From a virus (Duplodnaviria; Heunggongvirae; Uroviricota; Caudoviricetes): a stretch of 64,000 nucleotides of DNA. Both the position numbers and the translations under genes were made by a program. The notes beneath the pieces are model-generated. The model did no database searches, was not told the origin of the DNA, and saw nothing but the letters and a program-made list of their open reading frames with translations. Positions within the stretch are counted from its first letter, which is position 1, and the number at the start of each line of letters is the position of its first letter. Where the stretch lies: IMG/VR virus record IMGVR_UViG_3300037264_002389, positions 10,545 to 74,544 of that record; one strand, 5' to 3'. Shown one piece after another: positions 43,696 through 51,131 of the stretch.

Positions 43696-44625
43696 ATGAG
43701 AGAAGAATTTAAAGAAGTTCGTTTCACGCCAGCATCATCACAGCGCATTGAACAATGTAACTCAATTATTTCAAATTATCAAGCACAGCATCTGCGATTG
43801 ACATTGCGGCAATTGTATTACCAGATGGTTGTACGGAATTGGTTAGTAAATGAAGAGCGATCATATCGACAATTATCTGGCTTGATTTCTGATGCGCGTT
43901 TAGCTGGGCTAGTTGATTGGGATGCTATTGAAGATCGTGTGCGTGTTCCGCGTATTCCAACCGAATTTACAAATTTGCGTGAATTAACCGAAGCCGCACT
44001 ACAATCTTATCGTTTACCACGTTGGGTTGGTCAGAAGCATTATGTTGAGTTATGGGTAGAGAAGGATGCTCTAGCTGGGGTGTTAATACCGTTGGCTAGG
44101 CATTTTCATGTTACCCTAATGGTCAATCGTGGCTATAGTTCCCAATCTGCCATGTATGAGAGCGCAAATCGTTTTAGAGAAAAATCAGCTATATTAGAGG
44201 ACAATAGTAATCTAATCATATTTTATCTTGGCGACCATGATCCATCTGGCGAGGATATGGTTCGTGATATTCGCGATCGTCTGTTTATGTTTGGTATGGA
44301 TATTGATGTCCGTAAAATTGCTTTAACGATGGAACAAATTGAGCATTATAATCCGCCACCAAACCCGACTAAATTGACTGATTCTAGAGCACCAGCCTAT
44401 ATTGCTATGCATGGCAATAATTCATGGGAAGTTGATGCGCTACCGCCTGAGGTATTAACTGGGCTTATTACCAGTGAGCTTAATGCCGTGATTAATAAGA
44501 GAGATATGAATGTGGTGAAGGCTCTTGAGGAAAGAGATAAAAAGAATTTGCGTGTTGTTGTTGAAGGGCTTCTAAATAGTAAGCCCAAGAAGTTAAGTAA
44601 GCCTAGGAAGCCCAAGAAGAAGTGA
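43696..44625 (+). CDS. Topo VI-A / Spo11-like 'mini-A' protein (5Y-CAP plus Toprim)
   Basis: RQLYYQMV (the R-x-x-YY catalytic tyrosine motif of type IIB cleavage subunits); ELWVEKDAL (Toprim Glu, cf. VVEKE); YLGDHDPSGEDM (the DxDPxG Toprim motif of Spo11/Topo VI-A). Spacing Y to E about 80 aa and E to DxD about 60 aa, as in Topo VI-A. Only 309 aa. Confidence 0.6.
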   Translation: MREEFKEVRFTPASSQRIEQCNSIISNYQAQHLRLTLRQLYYQMVVRNWLVNEERSYRQLSGLISDARLAGLVDWDAIEDRVRVPRIPTEFTNLRELTEAALQSYRLPRWVGQKHYVELWVEKDALAGVLIPLARHFHVTLMVNRGYSSQSAMYESANRFREKSAILEDNSNLIIFYLGDHDPSGEDMVRDIRDRLFMFGMDIDVRKIALTMEQIEHYNPPPNPTKLTDSRAPAYIAMHGNNSWEVDALPPEVLTGLITSELNAVINKRDMNVVKALEERDKKNLRVVVEGLLNSKPKKLSKPRKPKKK

Positions 44626-44691
44626 TACTTACTTGACAAGCTTGATTTATGTGGTAAAATATAGATTGGAGATGTTTGATAACGATACTGA

Positions 44692-44768
44692 CGCAGGCGG
44701 CTAGGGCTGGCTGCTCTGGAGAGGCCCATAACCTTTCAACGAGAGTTCGATTCTCTCGCCTGCTACCA
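44692..44768 (+). ncRNA. tRNA-like RNA element, candidate tRNA-like module of a Y RNA
   Basis: Canonical T-arm gagag-TTCGATT-ctctc, 7-bp acceptor-like stem with a 1:72 mismatch, discriminator A plus CCA. Anticodon-like stem-loop agagg-CCCAUAA-ccttt (CAU). No foldable D-arm and no U8 or U33. Lies immediately upstream of a Ro60 gene. Confidence 0.5.
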
Positions 44769-44772
44769 CAAG

Positions 44773-44990
44773 ACAGGGGACTGCGCGTCATTCCAGCTAC
44801 CGATAATGGCAAAATGACTTCGTAAATCCCCCTGTATTATGAGGAGACAATCGAGAGACTGCGCGTCATTCCAGCAACTTCATACGGAGAAGTCAGGTGT
44901 AAACCTGAGCGAAAAAATGACCACGCGATTCCTCTCGATTTTATACCTACTTGGTCGTAAGATTTAGAGACTGCACGTCACTATTGACTG
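44773..44990 (+). repeat. three iterated stem-loop units sharing the core gactgcgcgtcattccagc
   Basis: Core copies at 44779-44797, 44857-44875 and a degenerate 44968-44985. Each is embedded in flanking inverted repeats (acagggga/tcccctgt; tcgagag/ctctcga; tagaga/tctct). Confidence 0.6.
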
Positions 44991-45028
44991 CGATTTCTCT
45001 TTAATTACGAAGTCTAATTACGACAACC

Positions 45029-46624
45029 ATGACGCAAGATACGAAATACGAACGCAATGGAGAAGATATAATGTCAACTACTACCCAAACAAATCAACTA
45101 GCCCACATAGAGCATTTCACGCCGGAACTTAAAGCGCGAATCCCACAGGCTCTATCAGATATGATCGATGTGTCATTCTCGGCAACTAACCGAGCAACGT
45201 TCTATAACTCCAAGCAGGAACAGGAAGCAGCTGTTGAGAAAATTCACAAGGAATTATTTAACCTGGATAGAGGTCTATATGGACTAAGCCTCCTATTACC
45301 GGGAACGAACGACTATGCGAGACAACTTGGCCTAGGGTTTTTGCTTGATAATCCCCGTGGCGGCAAATTGGCTGTGTTAACAGAAGCACAGGAAGCCAAG
45401 CTAGTAACCTACTTGGCCCAATTCATGCCCCCACAGCGATTATTTAAGCTTTATCGCGAGCTACGGCAGAACCGTGTCAATAACTCTAGGACAAGAAAAC
45501 TCATCCTCCGAACCATCCTAGGTTCACGAAGACTTGAATTATGGGCAGTCAAGTACAGATTTAAAATCAGACAGGCACTTAGCCATGCATGGGGCCGCGC
45601 TACAGCACTGGCAATGAAGGCAATCCTATCCAAAGAAGGGAAAGATAGATCTGAGCAGGAAACCAAAGGATTGGAGAGGAATATCACCAAGTACGCAGCA
45701 GAGCCGACCAAGGCACTAGAGTGTGTTAAATTCATTTTCGGAGTAGAGACTGGACTAACCATCCCGATCCTTAAGTCTTATCATGCCGCCAGAACTGATC
45801 TGTCTAAAGGGAAGGATCTACCAGAAGAACAACTCGAATATTTGCGCAACAGGCTCCATCCAACGGTCAGCCGAGCAGAAGTGCTTAAACTCGCCAAGAG
45901 CACTATGTCCGAAGGCAAGAAAATGGCAGTTCAAAGACAGGCTAAAGAAGCCGGTGTCGAAATTAAATTCGATCCATCAGCAGCTGATCCTGTTAGGCTC
46001 TACATTTATGCCTATGAAATGGGCATGACGAATGAAATTTCCAATGAACTAAAAAAGAAGGCAAAGAAAACAGCAGATATGCTACTCACCAAATACGATA
46101 AGATTGGTATTGTGATTGACAACTCTTTATCAATGCGTGGACATGGTACGCAGAAGAACCGCCCAATTGCAGTTGCTCTTGCTACTCGTGATATGCTTGA
46201 GGCGGCATCAGAAAATGCCACCATTGAATATTGTGGGCAAGAAACTAATAAACTGGTTCAGCCGATTGGTGATACTAGTCTGTCATATGCTTTGGTTAAG
46301 GTTCTCAAGAGTGGCAAATTAGATTCAGTGTTCGTCATTACTGATGGATATGAAAATGCTCCCGCTGGGCGTTTCGCTCAGACGGTAGAGGCTGTTAGGA
46401 AAATCGGAATCGTTACGCCGATCTTCCAGATCGCCCCTGTAATGGCTGCTGAGAAGGGCGGTATTCGGCAGATATCATCGCAAGTTCCGGCTATGCCATT
46501 GAATAAGCCGGAAGCGATAAATGTTGTAATCATCAAATCATTGCTTGTTTCTGATGTCGATAAGGCAATCCTAGGGATGGCTAAGTCTCTATTGCCACAA
46601 CTTGGGGAGAATAGCGATGACTGA
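45029..46624 (+). CDS. rsr: Ro60/Rsr orthologue (TROVE domain plus C-terminal vWA with MIDAS)
   Basis: [22 protein letters not shown] vs human Ro60 [36 protein letters not shown] vs MWGRALRKAIADW; vWA [9 protein letters not shown] (DxSxS) vs [17 protein letters not shown] vs [25 protein letters not shown] vs ADVFIVFTDNETFAG; 531 aa. Confidence 0.78.
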   Translation: [531 protein letters not shown]

Positions 46625-47675
46625 ATTGACTATTAGTGAGATTCTACGTGGGTTAGTGCCCGGTAGATTACAATCGGTTGGTTTGATGCAGGTTATTCCG
46701 TTGACCTGCACGGACCCCGATCTATTTGATCAGGATCTAGTGTCGCCGATGCATAATTATGATGCACAGTCTTCGAATGTGCGAGTCACTAGCGGCACGA
46801 CAGGATATGGTGCAATGCAGTTTAAGAATCCGACTGATAAGGTTTTGCTTGTCCCATGCCATGTTGGTTATGTTACCAAACATGCATCGCAGGACCACGC
46901 TATGGCTACTTCTGGTTTAGTCGCAGCAAAGAAGGAGAAGATATTTGAGAACGCGATGTGTATTCAACAGAGGCAAGGTGGCTTGATTCCACTTGAGCAA
47001 CATAAGATGTTAATCCTCCCATACTCTCTACGCGAATGTGCTTTAGCTAAGAGAAGCAGCAATGAATTTAGTAGACTATGGGAAGACATTGATGACTTTA
47101 ATAAGACACTTGGTATTGCCACGCGAGGTGGGCATCTTGAATACTTCATGGATGCTTTTAAAGAAGAGCTAGATCAATTTGTTGCCGAGTTTGAGATTGT
47201 ACCTGGACAGACTGGCGCGATTATCTTGGTTAATGGTTCGGTGGTAGGTGTTGAGCGAGCACCTTCTCCTAAGTTCTGGTCAGAGGTTTGGGATGCTCTG
47301 ATTAGAGAGTGCTATGGTTCGCTGGCTATTGAAGTTAGCCGTAAAACAGGTAATCGTTTACCGCCTCCAAGCACTAGGACTGCGATTGATCTGCAACAGA
47401 TTAATACCCTTGATGATCTGGAAAAGGAATTGCAACGCGCAGATTGCGACGCCGAGGCGAGGGTTAAGACCATAGTGCGCGATCTATTGGAAGATCCGTT
47501 TAAAACCAAGAACGAAGGTGATCTTAATAGATATAATCTCATGACCCTTGAGAATGGTCAATTTAATGGTCAGGTGGTACGAGAGAGCCAGAGGGTTGTT
47601 TATGCCTCTCTGTTCACCACTAAGTCATGGGCTAAGAATGCTCCGTGGATGAAGGCCAGTAAGTTTGCAGTCTAG
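46602..47675 (+). CDS. hypothetical protein co-operonic with the Ro60 gene
   Basis: 357-aa ORF overlapping the rsr stop by 23 nt. Confidence 0.5.
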   Translation: MGRIAMTELTISEILRGLVPGRLQSVGLMQVIPLTCTDPDLFDQDLVSPMHNYDAQSSNVRVTSGTTGYGAMQFKNPTDKVLLVPCHVGYVTKHASQDHAMATSGLVAAKKEKIFENAMCIQQRQGGLIPLEQHKMLILPYSLRECALAKRSSNEFSRLWEDIDDFNKTLGIATRGGHLEYFMDAFKEELDQFVAEFEIVPGQTGAIILVNGSVVGVERAPSPKFWSEVWDALIRECYGSLAIEVSRKTGNRLPPPSTRTAIDLQQINTLDDLEKELQRADCDAEARVKTIVRDLLEDPFKTKNEGDLNRYNLMTLENGQFNGQVVRESQRVVYASLFTTKSWAKNAPWMKASKFAV

Positions 47676-47939: not shown

Positions 47940-48872
47940 ATGTCTAGTGCCCATGTTTCTTCCCTCCAAGACCGAATCTCACAAGCAGCAAAGGTGATGA
48001 AAATCACCGAAGACCAACTATGGGAACACCTATCTGATCTTGGTATTAATCAAAAAGACGACGACGCATTAGCCCTATTGGAAGCTGAAACTACACGCGA
48101 AGGTGATGCACGGAAAGTGTTTTGTGAAAATGCTGTGGCTCCCTATGTTCCAGTAGCACGATTCCTGGCAGGATGGGCAATTCTGAAAGGCCGTAACTAT
48201 CAAGTCGGTGTAGATATGGCTTCCGGACCAGACAAATCGGTAGTTACCATTATTGAATCACTTCGACCCATTAATAGTCTCAAAGACAAAGAACTCATCG
48301 AAAAATACGGACCAGACGCTTCAACCGAAATCTACGACGAACTAAATCGTAGATCCCATGGTAGACCATTCATAATCTTCAATGAAGACAACACAATTGT
48401 TGATGTGGAGAAGACCACCAATCATCTCCGCATCGCTCGTAGAAATGAAACCAAATCAACACATGTAATCTCCACACCAGAAGGTAACAAACCAGTTCGT
48501 GTATATTGTGTTGGTGAATTCCCGATGCTATGGTTAGAAGAAAGCCCAATCCATCCAGAAATTATCTTAGTTAATGGTTACTGTGAAAAATGTGGCAACA
48601 CCTGGGATGGTATCTCAATGGAAGATAGGGTTCTTGTTCGAATTGGTGTAATGGTTGGATTACATTATGCCGATCATAAACTTGAGGTCCACAATTTAAT
48701 CGCTAATATCAAGAAAGCAGGCAATGCCAAGTTCTTGTTGGATATTCCAGATGTTAAATTCAAGTATGATGAATTGAAGGAGCAAAATCAATTGCCGGTC
48801 TTACGCAGACGCACATCAGCAAGTCGGGATGGCAAAGCTGACCCATGTTTCGTGCGTAACCGGTCTTATTAA
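47940..48872 (+). CDS. hypothetical protein
   Basis: 310 aa; preceded by a GC-rich structured 265-nt leader. Confidence 0.5.
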   Translation: MSSAHVSSLQDRISQAAKVMKITEDQLWEHLSDLGINQKDDDALALLEAETTREGDARKVFCENAVAPYVPVARFLAGWAILKGRNYQVGVDMASGPDKSVVTIIESLRPINSLKDKELIEKYGPDASTEIYDELNRRSHGRPFIIFNEDNTIVDVEKTTNHLRIARRNETKSTHVISTPEGNKPVRVYCVGEFPMLWLEESPIHPEIILVNGYCEKCGNTWDGISMEDRVLVRIGVMVGLHYADHKLEVHNLIANIKKAGNAKFLLDIPDVKFKYDELKEQNQLPVLRRRTSASRDGKADPCFVRNRSY

Positions 48873-50627: not shown

Positions 50628-51131
50628 ATGATCTACCGCGCACTAATGTTCGCCAAAGCAGCCCATAAAGGTCAATTCAGAAAATATACTAACGAACCAT
50701 ACGTAACACACCCAATCAGAGTAGCACACGCAGTAATGCTACATCCTATAGTGGCAGAAGATATGATAGCAGCAGCCTTCCTACATGATGTGCCAGAAGA
50801 TACCGAATTCACAATAGAACAAATCACTAACCTATTTGGACAAGAAGTAGGAACCTTAGTTGACGAACTAACAAACCAAAGCAAAGCCACCGGATTGCCA
50901 AGAGCAGAACGAAAATCCATGGATCGTGAACGCCTCAAAACAGTCAGTAAGAAAGCTAAGATCATTAAAATGCTAGACCGAATTGATAACCTTAATGAAA
51001 TGCATGGAGCAGAATACGACTTCAAGAAACTATATGTCGGTGAGTCATTATGGTTAGCAGATTCTATTGGAGATGCAGACCCAGCTCTGAAGAAAAGATT
51101 AATAACAGCAGCCAATTTACTACATGCTTGA
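50628..51131 (+). CDS. small alarmone hydrolase (SpoT/RelA HD-domain, Mesh1-like)
   Basis: AHKGQFRKYTNEPYVTHP (cf. AHxGQxRxSGEPYIxHP), AAFLHDVPEDT (HD...ED), KMLDRIDNL (cf. KLADRLHNM); 167 aa. Confidence 0.78.
   Translation: MIYRALMFAKAAHKGQFRKYTNEPYVTHPIRVAHAVMLHPIVAEDMIAAAFLHDVPEDTEFTIEQITNLFGQEVGTLVDELTNQSKATGLPRAERKSMDRERLKTVSKKAKIIKMLDRIDNLNEMHGAEYDFKKLYVGESLWLADSIGDADPALKKRLITAANLLHA

Follow-up and report, generated by a model that had tools for sequence, protein, structure and literature searches.

The window analyzed here (the whole stretch of phage DNA, 64 kb in length) carries at positions 44692 to 44768 what we read as a real RNA gene for a noncanonical tRNA(CAU), likely an initiator-type tRNA that the phage makes alongside a Ro60-like RNP, and we regard this reading as about evenly balanced between right and wrong. 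The sequence features of the element are real and far above chance, and we are far more confident that it is a tRNA-type RNA, and is processed as one, than that it is charged: actual aminoacylation we would put at, or a little under, an even chance. The element, as a tRNA-Met-like gene, heads a phage operon whose other members are three Y-RNA-like hairpins, a very divergent Ro60-like gene, and a partner ARPP-1 gene; the arrangement is widespread among phages and bacteria, and a published description of it was not found in the literature searched.

Anatomy of the element

44692..44768, plus strand: noncanonical tRNA(CAU)-like gene (ARAGORN, MFE cloverleaf, model R2)
44692-44698, plus strand: acceptor 5' strand CGCAGGC, read from the letters
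44699-44703, plus strand: connector GGCUA, 5 nt
44704-44716, plus strand: compact D hairpin (GGGC 44704-44707, loop UGGCU, GCUC 44713-44716)
44717-44719, plus strand: UGG between the D hairpin and the anticodon arm
44720-44736, plus strand: anticodon arm (AGAGG 44720-44724, loop CCCATAA 44725-44731, CCTTT 44732-44736)
44727-44729, plus strand: anticodon CAT
44737-44740, plus strand: variable CAAC
44741-44757, plus strand: T arm (GAGAG 44741-44745, TTCGATT 44746-44752, CTCTC 44753-44757)
44758-44764, plus strand: acceptor 3' strand GCCTGCT
44765-44768, plus strand: A73 (44765), then encoded CCA (44766-44768)

Reading of the letters bears out most of what a preliminary description of this DNA had claimed, namely, a textbook T arm, a 7-nt acceptor 3' strand followed by the discriminator A and CCA, a 5' acceptor strand that pairs at 6 of 7 positions with a C1xU72 mismatch, an anticodon-like hairpin with a CCCAUAA loop, and the lack of both U8 (G at position 8 in the register of model R2) and U33 (C in the element). 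The claim that failed is the absence of a D arm: a compact hairpin, GGGC-UGGCU-GCUC, sits at the D-arm place, can be extended to 6 bp (UAGGGC/GCUCUG, 44702 to 44718), and is recovered in the MFE fold, in the Rfam tRNA-Sec alignment, and in the alignments to both custom models. Its 5-nt loop contains GG; A14 and A21 are absent, and 11:24 would be G:U where bacterial initiators have A11:U24, although numbering in so compact a D stem is uncertain. With G8, C33, the compact D arm, and Rfam scores below threshold, the element is, as had been said, not a standard tRNA.

ARAGORN, the MFE fold, and the letters agree on a cloverleaf of four arms in which the anticodon and T loops each have 7 nt and the acceptor pairs at 6 of 7 positions, and the MFE cloverleaf has an energy of -31.7 kcal/mol (z -2.2). 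The upper half is canonical, with a 12-layer acceptor/T stack, the GTTCGATTC T loop (GTTCRANYC is present), a 7-position acceptor followed by the discriminator A73, and CCA. The acceptor end is initiator-like (C1xU72, G2:C71, C3:G70, A73) and continues with A4:U69 and G5:C68, and the anticodon stem (A29:U41, G30:C40, G31:C39) has two of the three initiator G:C pairs at 29-31:39-41.

Chance controls and RNA models

ARAGORN, one of the checks that had been proposed for the element, calls tRNA-Met(CAU) at 44695 to 44768. This is its sole call in the 64-kb window, where the element is thus the only tRNA-type gene by this program, and it makes no call in 150 simulated windows of matching dinucleotide makeup; the composite motif of the preliminary description has a single occurrence in the real window and a single one across the 150 simulations.

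The proposed check with covariance models gave a divided result, in that the Rfam tRNA and Y RNA models remain below threshold and a custom tRNA(CAU) model, R2, matches. At the gathering score, Rfam has no match in the whole window. The best Rfam score of the element is to tRNA-Sec (24.2 bits, E 0.03), which is under threshold; as only tRNA-Sec, from the clan of RF00005, was kept at E<=10, RF00005 itself (gathering score, 29 bits) must have scored lower. YrlA (RF02553) has no match at E<=10 over 44400 to 45300, and blastn of the same interval against INPHARED phages returns no match.

The training set of R2 comprised 14 tRNA(CAU) genes with compact D arms, all from bacterial tRNA arrays and none from the window, and this family has compensatory changes at 18 of 21 pairs. 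Its sole match in the 64-kb window is 44692 to 44766 (43.6 bits, E 6.6e-9), a full-length match (model positions 1 to 70 of 70, register C1=44692) that includes the paired 5' strand. The score is well under the 63 to 80 bits of the training sequences; over approximately 400 tRNA calls in related loci, only one nonfamily region (that is, other than the 14 training sequences plus the duplicate L019:789) beats the element, and it is another tRNA-Met, at 45.4 bits. Array tRNAs of related loci score 31 to 67 bits on RF00005. The element has the family ends YGC.../...GCNAC, in the form CGCAGGC...GCCTGC-T-A-C, and its 5-nt connector and extra D-loop bases align to the family as an insertion. Family members have an invariant U33-C34-A35-U36 (U33 in 14 of 14) and a connector of 0 to 2 nt, and the element, with C33 and 5 nt, fits neither. 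The sole other copy of the element, on contig L102, is identical DNA, so covariation is not measurable on the element itself.

The full-length match also bears on the suggestion that the element is a tRNA 3' fragment, to which an attachment-site copy of a host tRNA may be added. It is true that the 3' half (T arm, acceptor strand, and CCA) is the most canonical part, but the element forms an entire cloverleaf with a paired 5' strand of its own, and R2 covers all of it; its noncanonical lower half does not look like one copied from a housekeeping tRNA, and the element lies within an RNA operon, directly 3' of a conserved promoter. The fragment reading fails on these points, and we give such an origin next to no credence.

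Relatives in bacterial tRNA arrays

Judged from sequence, the element belongs with the compact-D-arm, initiator-like tRNA-Met type of the arrays that flank bacterial Ro60-like/ARPP-1 loci. Its closest single relative is L032:6244, with which it has CGCAGG../..CCTGC-T-ACC and the anticodon stem xGAGG/CCUxx in common, and the Y1xY72 plus A73 subtype is common to the element, this gene, L009:853, L011:637, L003:1596, and L039:5921. The arrays hold neighboring pairs of CAU tRNAs in which one is paired at 1:72 and the other is Y1xY72 with A73, the pattern expected for an elongator and an initiator. TRNA calls, 5 to 36 of them, lie within ~3 kb of the Ro60-like gene in 18 of 60 scanned bacterial loci; our literature search found no paper that connects these arrays with Ro60-like genes or Y-like RNAs.

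Among the three readings put forward in the preliminary description, a degenerate tRNA-Met/Ile2 is nearest to the truth; the Y RNA module and the 3' fragment did not survive. The tRNA-Met-like part stands on the full-length R2 match and the initiator-like acceptor, and "degenerate" undersells the element. Ile2 identity is unlikely because the determinants of E. coli TilS are C4:G69 and C5:G68, from which A4:U69 and G5:C68 differ.

The RNA operon and its Y-RNA-like modules

44633..44660, plus strand: sigma-70-type promoter (TTGACA, 16 nt, TAAAAT, TG before the -10; 11 of 12 consensus matches)
44661..44691, plus strand: 5' leader, ~25 nt, putative RNase P-removed part (letters, MAFFT)
44772..44836, plus strand: Y-RNA-like module 1 (R1 27.4 bits, E 2e-6 over 64 kb, model positions 1-123)
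44850..44939, plus strand: Y-RNA-like module 2 (R1 27.4 bits, E 2e-6; inverted repeat I1; fold)
44962..45006, plus strand: Y-RNA-like module 3, minimal and weakly supported (R1 with filters off, 9.0 bits, E ~0.01 per 501 nt)
45059-45065, plus strand: RBS GGAGAAG of the Ro60-like ORF
45071..46624, plus strand: divergent Ro60-like protein, 517 aa (AF2 pLDDT 89, Foldseek Ro60 matches)
46617..47675, plus strand: ARPP-1 family protein, 352 aa, obligate partner gene of the Ro60-like ORF

Transcription is predicted to start at ~44667, and in the related phage contigs L073, L074, L077, and L078 the noncoding array opens with the same promoter, TACTTGACA-N16/17-TGTGGTAAnAT. When the whole leader is folded (z -3.95), the MFE and centroid structures alike show the cloverleaf and three hairpins. 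A giant stem around the tRNA-like RNA and the three modules was rejected, being a weak 7-bp, G-U-containing MFE pairing that is absent from the centroid. The leader sequence GGAGAUGUUUGAUAACGAUACUG is loosely like the 5' half of a Y-like module (MAFFT, by eye); the idea that 44668 to 44691 is what remains of a lost module's 5' half is a lead only, however, since R1 gives this stretch no score and it lacks a 3' partner. On the identical contig L102, no gene is called on either strand across 44626 to 45070, and the minus-strand ORFs at 44397-44729 and 44603-44812 are treated as spurious because they are uncalled there and overlap the supported plus-strand gene and RNAs.

We define a Y-like module by an outer 5-bp stem, a conserved asymmetric internal loop, an inner GUCRY/RYGAC stem, and a variable core; R1 is a covariance model of the local module, built without window sequence. 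Across the R1 family, 96.4% of cells are paired, versus 65% in shuffles and ~40% in slid controls. Module 1 has the outer stem ACAGGGG/CCCCUGU, the conserved asymmetric internal loop, the inner stem GUCAUU/AAUGAC, and a short core without a tRNA-like domain, and it is also visible in the fold and as repeat families D1-D3. Module 2 has the same scaffold with a core of two small hairpins, and module 3 has a GUCA/UGAC inner stem, no core, and the third copy of repeat D1.

In relatives, the Y-like stems enclose tRNA-like cores, and a rival to our reading is that the element is an uncharged tRNA mimic, the tRNA-shaped domain for the phage's Ro60-like RNP. The three local stems would be without their former cores, with the tRNA shape provided next to them, either as a ~145-nt chimera with module 1 (44692-44836) or in trans, as a bait, ligand, or decoy for a tRNA-binding factor. 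We consider this fairly unlikely. Of the 91 loci with enough upstream sequence, only ~80 of which were scanned with R1, at least 61 carry at least one module in the 1.5 kb before the Ro60-like gene; among the best 150 R1 matches, 101 reach the length (>=105 nt) that a full tRNA-like core requires, and many cores are complete four-arm tRNA shapes that score 41 to 60 bits on RF00005. The "anticodons" of these cores are unconstrained (39 different triplets, stop-reading and A34 types among them), with U33 and R37 mostly retained, and true module cores carry non-U33 CAU loops near-identical to that of the element (CACAUAA in L089 and CCCAUAA in L096). Furthermore, the CCA of the element is 4 nt from the module 1 stem, a gap that would impede 3' exonucleolytic trimming, and known Y RNAs tether Ro60 to an effector via their second domain (PMC4201824). 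Against this explanation, shape alone would need neither an encoded CCA nor the full Met/initiator identity set, R1 aligns to the core alone at 11.6 bits versus the 43.6 bits of R2, and no flanking stem encloses the element. C33 was rejected as a criterion for telling mimic from decoder: the frequency of non-U33 is 14% for tRNA calls inside modules versus 8% outside.

A narrower proposal, which builds on the bacterial Y RNA suggestion of the preliminary description, takes the element for the tRNA-like part of a YrlA-type Y RNA. The element does adjoin a gene with a Ro60 fold, and a YrlA-type permuted core exists in the family (L098 1909-1984; Rfam YrlA 34.9 bits, E 1.5e-4), but the arms of the element are in normal tRNA order, it has free ends and an encoded CCA, no Ro-binding stem encloses it, and YrlA finds no match to it at E<=10. 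We regard this reading as largely refuted and very improbable. What survives of the Y RNA intuition lies 4 nt downstream, in the Y-like stems of modules 1 and 2 (R1 27.4 bits each).

Finally, the element could be a decaying tRNA relic kept only as a handle for RNase P and 3'-end processing, which would trim the leader and set the 5' end of Y-like RNA 1. General tRNA models stay below threshold, U8 and U33 are missing, and the best-preserved part is the upper half, which is sufficient for processing enzymes; moreover, planctomycete loci put a tRNA-Cys (GCA) ~5 nt ahead of the first module. Yet the element keeps an intact anticodon arm (7-nt loop) as well as CAU, A73, and CCA, R2 matches over its full length, and related phages have a first module without any free tRNA ahead of it. 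A relic seems to us quite unlikely.

The Ro60-like and ARPP-1 genes

The preliminary description had placed the element just upstream of Ro60, and this adjacency is loose: the ORF begins 303 nt 3' of the element, with three Y-like modules between. The Ro60 fold is borne out by structure prediction, and searches of Pfam, NCBIfam, and PDB sequences did not confirm it. Taken as a whole, then, the original observation stood in its sequence features, fell on the missing D arm, and holds loosely for Ro60.

The start codon of the Ro60-like gene follows the identical P0001 and the gene call in L102. In its predicted structure, the protein has a helical-repeat ring domain and a vWA domain with a DxSxS MIDAS, of which D350/S352/S354 are invariant. 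The top seven Foldseek matches against the PDB are all Ro60 (E 5.5e-8 to 3e-6, TM 0.44-0.55), with alignments that span the full length (~550 columns), and identity to solved Ro60s is ~13%. Pfam TROVE has no match to the ORF, for which Pfam gives only a weak VWA_2 (E 5e-4), NCBIfam and PHROGs have no match, and phmmer against PDB sequences returns nothing relevant. A scan of viral contigs with the single protein found no relatives; an alignment-based scan did recover them. The ARPP-1 gene is paired with the Ro60-like gene in 91 of 102 loci, and we found at least 310 Ro60-like and at least 319 ARPP-1 proteins, hosted by phage-like contigs, viral contigs from IMG/VR (up to 436 kb), and bacteria (Planctomycetota, Myxococcota, Bacteroidota, and actinomycetes). 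ARPP-1 has conserved Cys and Gln residues.

A model for the transcript and its products

In the model that we favor, the element would be the first unit of a transcript that starts from the strong promoter matched at 44633-44660, crosses all three Y-RNA-like stems, and reads on into the ORFs for the Ro60-like protein and ARPP-1. Given the canonical upper half, RNase P would be expected to cut at 44691/44692, and 3' trimming would end at the encoded CCA, which would in addition release Y-like RNA 1 at its 5' end, 4 nt further on. The product would be a 77-nt tRNA-shaped RNA with CAU, A73, G2:C71, C3:G70, and an unpaired 1:72. These are the determinants of E. coli MetRS and formyltransferase, and we thus posit that the RNA is most likely a phage-supplied initiator-type tRNA, made along with a tRNA-directed Ro60-like RNP. 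Counting against a charged tRNA are C33, G8, the inserted connector and D-loop bases, the solitary position of the gene in the 64 kb, the R2 score under the training range, and the presence of only two of the three initiator G:C pairs; the element also occupies the place where relatives carry uncharged, stem-embedded tRNA mimics.

On a larger scale, we speculate that the loci represent an undescribed, widespread Ro60/Y-RNA branch in which a Ro60-like ring protein is obligately paired with ARPP-1 and the cognate tRNA-shaped RNAs come in three formats: stem-nested, circularly permuted, and, in the present phage, free-standing with CCA. Bacterial versions would be joined to large tRNA arrays, the free CAU RNA would be a functional initiator-type tRNA or an initiator decoy, and it and the RNP would jointly shield translation initiation from host defenses that target tRNAs. 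As a whole, this proposal is unlikely to be right. Ro60/Y-RNA particles are conserved from bacteria to humans. A series of RNA partners that runs from a bare stem through permuted mimics and four-arm tRNA shapes to a free CCA-ending tRNA, combined with ARPP-1 as a candidate partner enzyme and with Ro60-like/ARPP-1 genes that often lie within tRNA arrays, offers a handle on why Ro60 systems mimic tRNA, on the purpose of tRNA arrays, and on how phages defend or manipulate the tRNA pool. There is also a lesson for annotation, in that sequence-profile searches overlook the Ro60 clade of the present phage and its associated RNAs.

Comparison with known systems

TRNA-like units serve as processing punctuation for noncoding RNAs in MALAT1 mascRNA and in the tRNA-miRNA units of MHV68. 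Here, too, a tRNA shape abuts another structured noncoding RNA in one predicted transcript, such that tRNA end-processing enzymes would define the end of the neighbor; those systems are eukaryotic or viral-nuclear, and for the phage element such processing is a prediction.

Bacterial initiator tRNA-fMet resembles the element in CAU, the unpaired 1:72, G2:C71, C3:G70, A73 (the determinant list from E. coli), and a length of 77 nt. Compared with E. coli sequences, the element is identical to tRNA-fMet at 47 of 77 positions and scores 48 against fMet, 37 against elongator Met, and 36 against Ile2. Where the initiator has C1xA72, the element has C1xU72; A29:U41 replaces the first of the three G:C pairs, positions 33 and 8 are C and G, the D arm is compact (5-nt loop), and the score stays under the Rfam tRNA threshold. 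The bacterial tRNA arrays contain its nearest relatives, tRNA(CAU) genes; unlike these, the phage element is a lone tRNA-type gene.

Known bacterial and phage systems pair Ro60 (Rsr) with adjacent Y RNAs (YrlA/YrlB, Yrn1 of D. radiodurans, and Yrl1/Yrl2 of Thermus phage phiLo). The present locus likewise has a ring plus vWA/MIDAS protein with several structured RNAs just upstream on the same strand, but the protein has ~13% identity to solved Ro60s and is missed by Pfam TROVE and NCBIfam, and the partner gene is ARPP-1, not RtcB/RtcA. As in known Y RNAs, the ends of each module RNA form a stem with a conserved internal loop and, in the family, the distal domain mimics tRNA, with a YrlA-like permuted core in L098 and, elsewhere, cores of normal arm order whose RNA ends are at the acceptor side, as reported for D. 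radiodurans Yrn1, whose own form is less complete. In contrast, the stem motif (GGGRCUG..CGUCAYUNCAG / ..GAC..) differs, Rfam Y RNA models stay under threshold, many cores are complete tRNA shapes, and the flagged element is outside any Y-like stem. YrlA reportedly has no free CCA end in the paper on its structure. Its arm order is T arm, closed acceptor stem-loop, and D arm (PMC4201824), and in M. smegmatis, YrlA is cleaved by RNase P and then receives CCA (Chen et al. 2014, PMC4201824). The element and this YrlA are both tRNA-like RNAs encoded at Ro60 loci, each with an acceptor-type stem of 7 bp, and the recognition by tRNA end-processing enzymes that is established there is predicted here. 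In M. smegmatis, however, the Y RNA itself contains the tRNA-like domain and acquires CCA once cleaved, whereas the phage element stands apart as its own unit, has an anticodon arm, and encodes its CCA.

A divergent tRNA(CAU)-like gene

The putative operon that carries the tRNA-like element comprises the following features.

44633-44660, near-consensus promoter (TTGACA, 16 nt, TAAAAT with TG), 5' of the tRNA-like element
44692-44768 (+), non-canonical tRNA(CAU)-like gene
44772-44836 (+), Y-RNA-like module 1
44850-44939 (+), Y-RNA-like module 2
44962-45006 (+), Y-RNA-like module 3
45071-46624 (+), Ro60-like ORF, 517 aa
46617-47675 (+), ARPP-1 gene, 352 aa

Read directly, the element has the upper half that was first ascribed to it: a T arm (GAGAG-TTCGATT-CTCTC, 44741-44757), a 3' acceptor strand (GCCTGCT, 44758-44764) followed by A (44765) and CCA (44766-44768), and a 5' strand (CGCAGGC, 44692-44698) that pairs at six of seven positions, with a C1xU72 mismatch. 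The anticodon-like hairpin is likewise present at 44720-44736 (stem AGAGG/CCTTT, loop CCCATAA). The preliminary description also held that U8, U33, and the D arm were missing; the two uridines are indeed replaced, by G and C, but a compact hairpin, GGGC-UGGCU-GCUC, occupies the place of the D arm at 44704-44716. This hairpin, which can be extended to 6 bp, is seen in the minimum free energy (MFE) fold, in the Rfam tRNA-Sec alignment, and in the alignments to two covariance models of our own, R1 (Y-like modules) and R2 (compact-D-arm tRNA(CAU) genes from bacterial arrays).

ARAGORN made a single call in the 64-kb window, a tRNA-Met(cat) at 44695-44768, and no call in 150 simulated windows of equal dinucleotide content; the composite motif of the preliminary description occurred once in the real window and once in 150 simulations. 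Rfam gave no match in the window at the gathering score, and at E<=10 only tRNA-Sec (24.2 bits) was reported for the element, which is therefore not a standard tRNA by the general model, as had been proposed. There are no independent copies of the element, and no covariation is measurable on the element itself.

What, then, are its relatives? Among about 400 tRNA calls in related loci, the best match is a tRNA-Met(cat) in a Minicystis rosea array (L032:6244), with which the element shares CGCAGG../..CCTGC-T-ACC and the anticodon stem. The tRNA(CAU) genes of such arrays form a family with a YGC start, a GCNAC end, a CAU anticodon, and a compact D arm (stem of 3-4 bp, loop of 3-5 nt), and in 18 of the 21 pairs of their cloverleaf there are compensatory changes. 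They usually lie in adjacent pairs, one member with 1:72 paired and the other with a pyrimidine-pyrimidine 1:72 mismatch and A73. These pairs, in bacterial arrays beside Ro60-like genes, resemble an elongator/initiator pair, and in L032, at least, RF00005 scores below gathering on both members.

Adjacent tRNA(CAU) gene pairs (locus, positions)
L003, 1521/1596
L009, 768/853
L011, 549/637
L032, 6244/6314
L039, 5921/5991
L042, 306/376

R2, built from 14 array genes, has one match in the window, 44692-44766, at full length and in the register originally proposed (43.6 bits, E 6.6e-9; E-values of both custom models are rough, their calibration having been shortened). The range is 63-80 bits for the training members and for L019:789, which duplicates one of them; non-members reach at best 45.4 bits (another tRNA-Met) and 40.0 bits (a module core), with the rest below 38. 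The R2 match and its standing against these scores argue that the element is a divergent relative of the array family, from which it departs in the replaced invariant U33 and in insertions around the D hairpin. The earlier idea of a degenerate tRNA-Met/Ile2 thus survives as a tRNA-Met-type kinship. The element falls outside RF00005 and YrlA, and agrees in part with the array-type family and in part with an initiator tRNA. Another early idea, a Y RNA tRNA-mimic module, fares poorly: R1 aligns the core only, at 11.6 bits, with no scaffold stems around it, and the element is not one of the clade's own Y-like modules.

Y-RNA-like modules

Tandem RNA modules lie upstream of the Ro60-like gene in nearly all loci. 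They share the scaffold of the repeats in the window, in which a 5-bp outer stem is followed by an asymmetric internal loop that is conserved, then by an inner GUCRY/RYGAC stem, and the core varies. R1, built from 17 modules without any window sequence, gave 236 matches in 84 loci, every one on the gene's strand. Its pairing holds in 96.4% of cells, versus 65% when shuffled and about 40% with partners slid, and compensatory changes occur at every pair, these pairing figures being somewhat inflated by an alignment fitted to the model. In the window, R1 matches modules 1 and 2 at 27.4 bits each (E 2e-6) and, with filters off, module 3 as a weak third copy. The motif GAGACTGCGCGTCA(TTCCAGC) occurs three times downstream of the tRNA-like element, and each copy forms the 5' side of a long hairpin with bulges.

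The cores of most relatives are whole tRNA shapes in which the D, anticodon, and T arms are all present (RF00005, 41-60 bits), and a poorly paired acceptor connects them to the scaffold. Full-length cores (>=105 nt) make up 101 of the best 150 R1 matches; 90 of these 101 have a 7-nt anticodon-type loop, 78 have U33, and 87 have R37, and 39 different triplets occur as their "anticodons," stop-reading and A34 ones among them. An ACCA end stands at the tRNA position in some cores (10 at the offset versus about 1.6 expected by chance). In two loci (L098, 1856-2010; L096, 1800-1960) the cores are circularly permuted and run from the T arm through a closed acceptor stem-loop to the D arm, which is the YrlA topology; one matches Rfam YrlA below threshold (34.9 bits). 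Since the same stem scaffold holds permuted and non-permuted cores, both tRNA-mimic topologies coexist in one RNA family. These core properties argue that the modules upstream of Ro60-like genes are Y-RNA-like and that the Ro60 clade to which they belong is a divergent one.

Cores or neighboring tRNA calls also include stop-reading "anticodons" (TTA, TCA, CTA), many A34 triplets, and some 5-, 6-, or 8-nt loops (L090, 2209-2284; L081, 1757-1828; L082, 6008-6080; other module cores). Separately, among the modules upstream of the Ro60-like gene of one related phage contig lies a very strongly structured RNA of about 330 nt (L073:3312-3645, +; MFE -144.8 kcal/mol, z -7.7), which a stem of about 20 bp closes and which matches no Rfam family.

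The Ro60-like protein and its neighbors

The start of the Ro60-like ORF at 45071 follows that of an identical protein (P0001) and that of the gene called on L102, a contig identical to the window. Searches against Pfam TROVE, NCBIfam, and PDB sequences gave no match for the protein. Its AlphaFold model (pLDDT 89) aligns over the whole length to Ro60 structures, the seven best Foldseek matches are all Ro60 (best E 5.5e-8), and an invariant DxSxS MIDAS motif is present; on this predicted structure, the protein passes as Ro60 by fold only. There are at least 310 homologs, for which the most specific name is "VWA domain-containing."

The next gene encodes an ARPP-1 family protein, a family characterized no further than as a predicted enzyme whose activity is unknown, outside any Ro60 context (PMC9503650). 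We compared 72 bacterial loci (Planctomycetota, Myxococcota, Bacteroidota, Yinghuangia, and others), 24 IMG/VR viral loci, and five phage-like metagenome contig loci plus L102. Of the 102 loci, 91 have ARPP-1 together with the Ro60-like gene, and in 86 it follows immediately downstream in the same orientation; the remaining 11 stop at the Ro60-like match or shortly beyond it, or match that gene only partially.

The Ro60-like/ARPP-1 pair is often embedded in large tRNA arrays: 18 of 60 scanned bacterial loci (range L001-L072; e.g., L032, L039, L028, L003, and L007) have 5-36 ARAGORN calls within about 3 kb around it. In related phage contigs, ARPP-1 is followed by a Band_7/SPFH protein (L074, 6796-7806) or a second vWA protein (L077, 6951-8384). 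Relatives of the window's downstream ORF at 47940-48872 occur in L078 and L077, but it has no family assignment. About 4 kb from the RNA locus, 50628-51131 (+) encodes a protein of 167 aa whose match to RelA/SpoT proteins is confined to their N-terminal HD (hydrolase-type) region (Pfam HD_4, 5.8e-18; TIGR00691, positions 1-123 only); it looks like a phage small-alarmone-hydrolase-type gene.

A proposed transcript

The window is phage-like (tail-fibre PHROGs, dUTPase, a topoisomerase-like PHROG), and the promoter match also heads the RNA array in related phages. No gene was called at 44626-45070 on L102, and a terminator sought before the Ro60-like ORF was not found. The whole leader folds as a cloverleaf plus three hairpins in both MFE and centroid structures (z -3.95). 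We posit a single transcript bearing the tRNA-like RNA, three Y-like RNAs, and two ORFs. Because the acceptor/T half of the element is canonical, RNase P would cut at 44691/44692; trimming of the 3' end to the encoded CCA would also free Y-like RNA 1, which starts 4 nt later. In planctomycete loci, a tRNA likewise lies about 5 nt before the first module.

Would this RNA be charged? The element carries an unpaired C1x72, G2:C71, C3:G70, A73, and CAU, which we take to be the determinants of methionylation and formylation in E. coli; identity rules for MetRS, formyltransferase, and TilS, and E. coli tRNA sequences, served for comparison. Of the three G:C pairs typical of initiators, the element has two. 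In all three window modules the cores are short and lack a tRNA shape. The element's anticodon arm closely resembles the loops, CAU-type and non-U33, that true module cores carry in two other phage loci, L089 and L096. Alternatively, the RNA would be an uncharged tRNA shape that takes the place of the cores the modules lack, and it might remain attached to module 1. We slightly favor a charged RNA that would serve as an initiator-type tRNA.

The 3' strand of module 1 (GACTTCGTAA, 44816-44825) is a perfect complement of TTACGAAGTC (45005-45014), after module 3, and three copies of TACGAA stand between module 3 and the RBS (45004-45056); in other Y RNAs, CGAA is cited as the Ro60-binding motif (PMC12135203). 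The complementarity and the repeats could possibly provide alternative pairing or extra binding sites.

Relation to known systems

By itself the element is a modest curiosity; of more interest is the system to which it led. In the literature searched, we found no link of Ro60, TROVE, or Rsr to tRNA arrays or ARPP. One paper mentions, without further detail, that a ROT/TROVE protein and a tRNA-like partner of it occur in some jumbo phages (PMC7824862). Y RNAs are encoded beside Ro60 and mimic tRNA (PMC4201824), and a phage Ro60 has two upstream Y-like RNAs (PMC12135203). The clade's modules parallel these Ro60-adjacent Y RNAs, their tRNA mimicry, and phage Ro60 (PMC4201824, PMC12135203); judged from its sequence, the window system is functionally a Ro60/Y-RNA system with tRNA mimicry.
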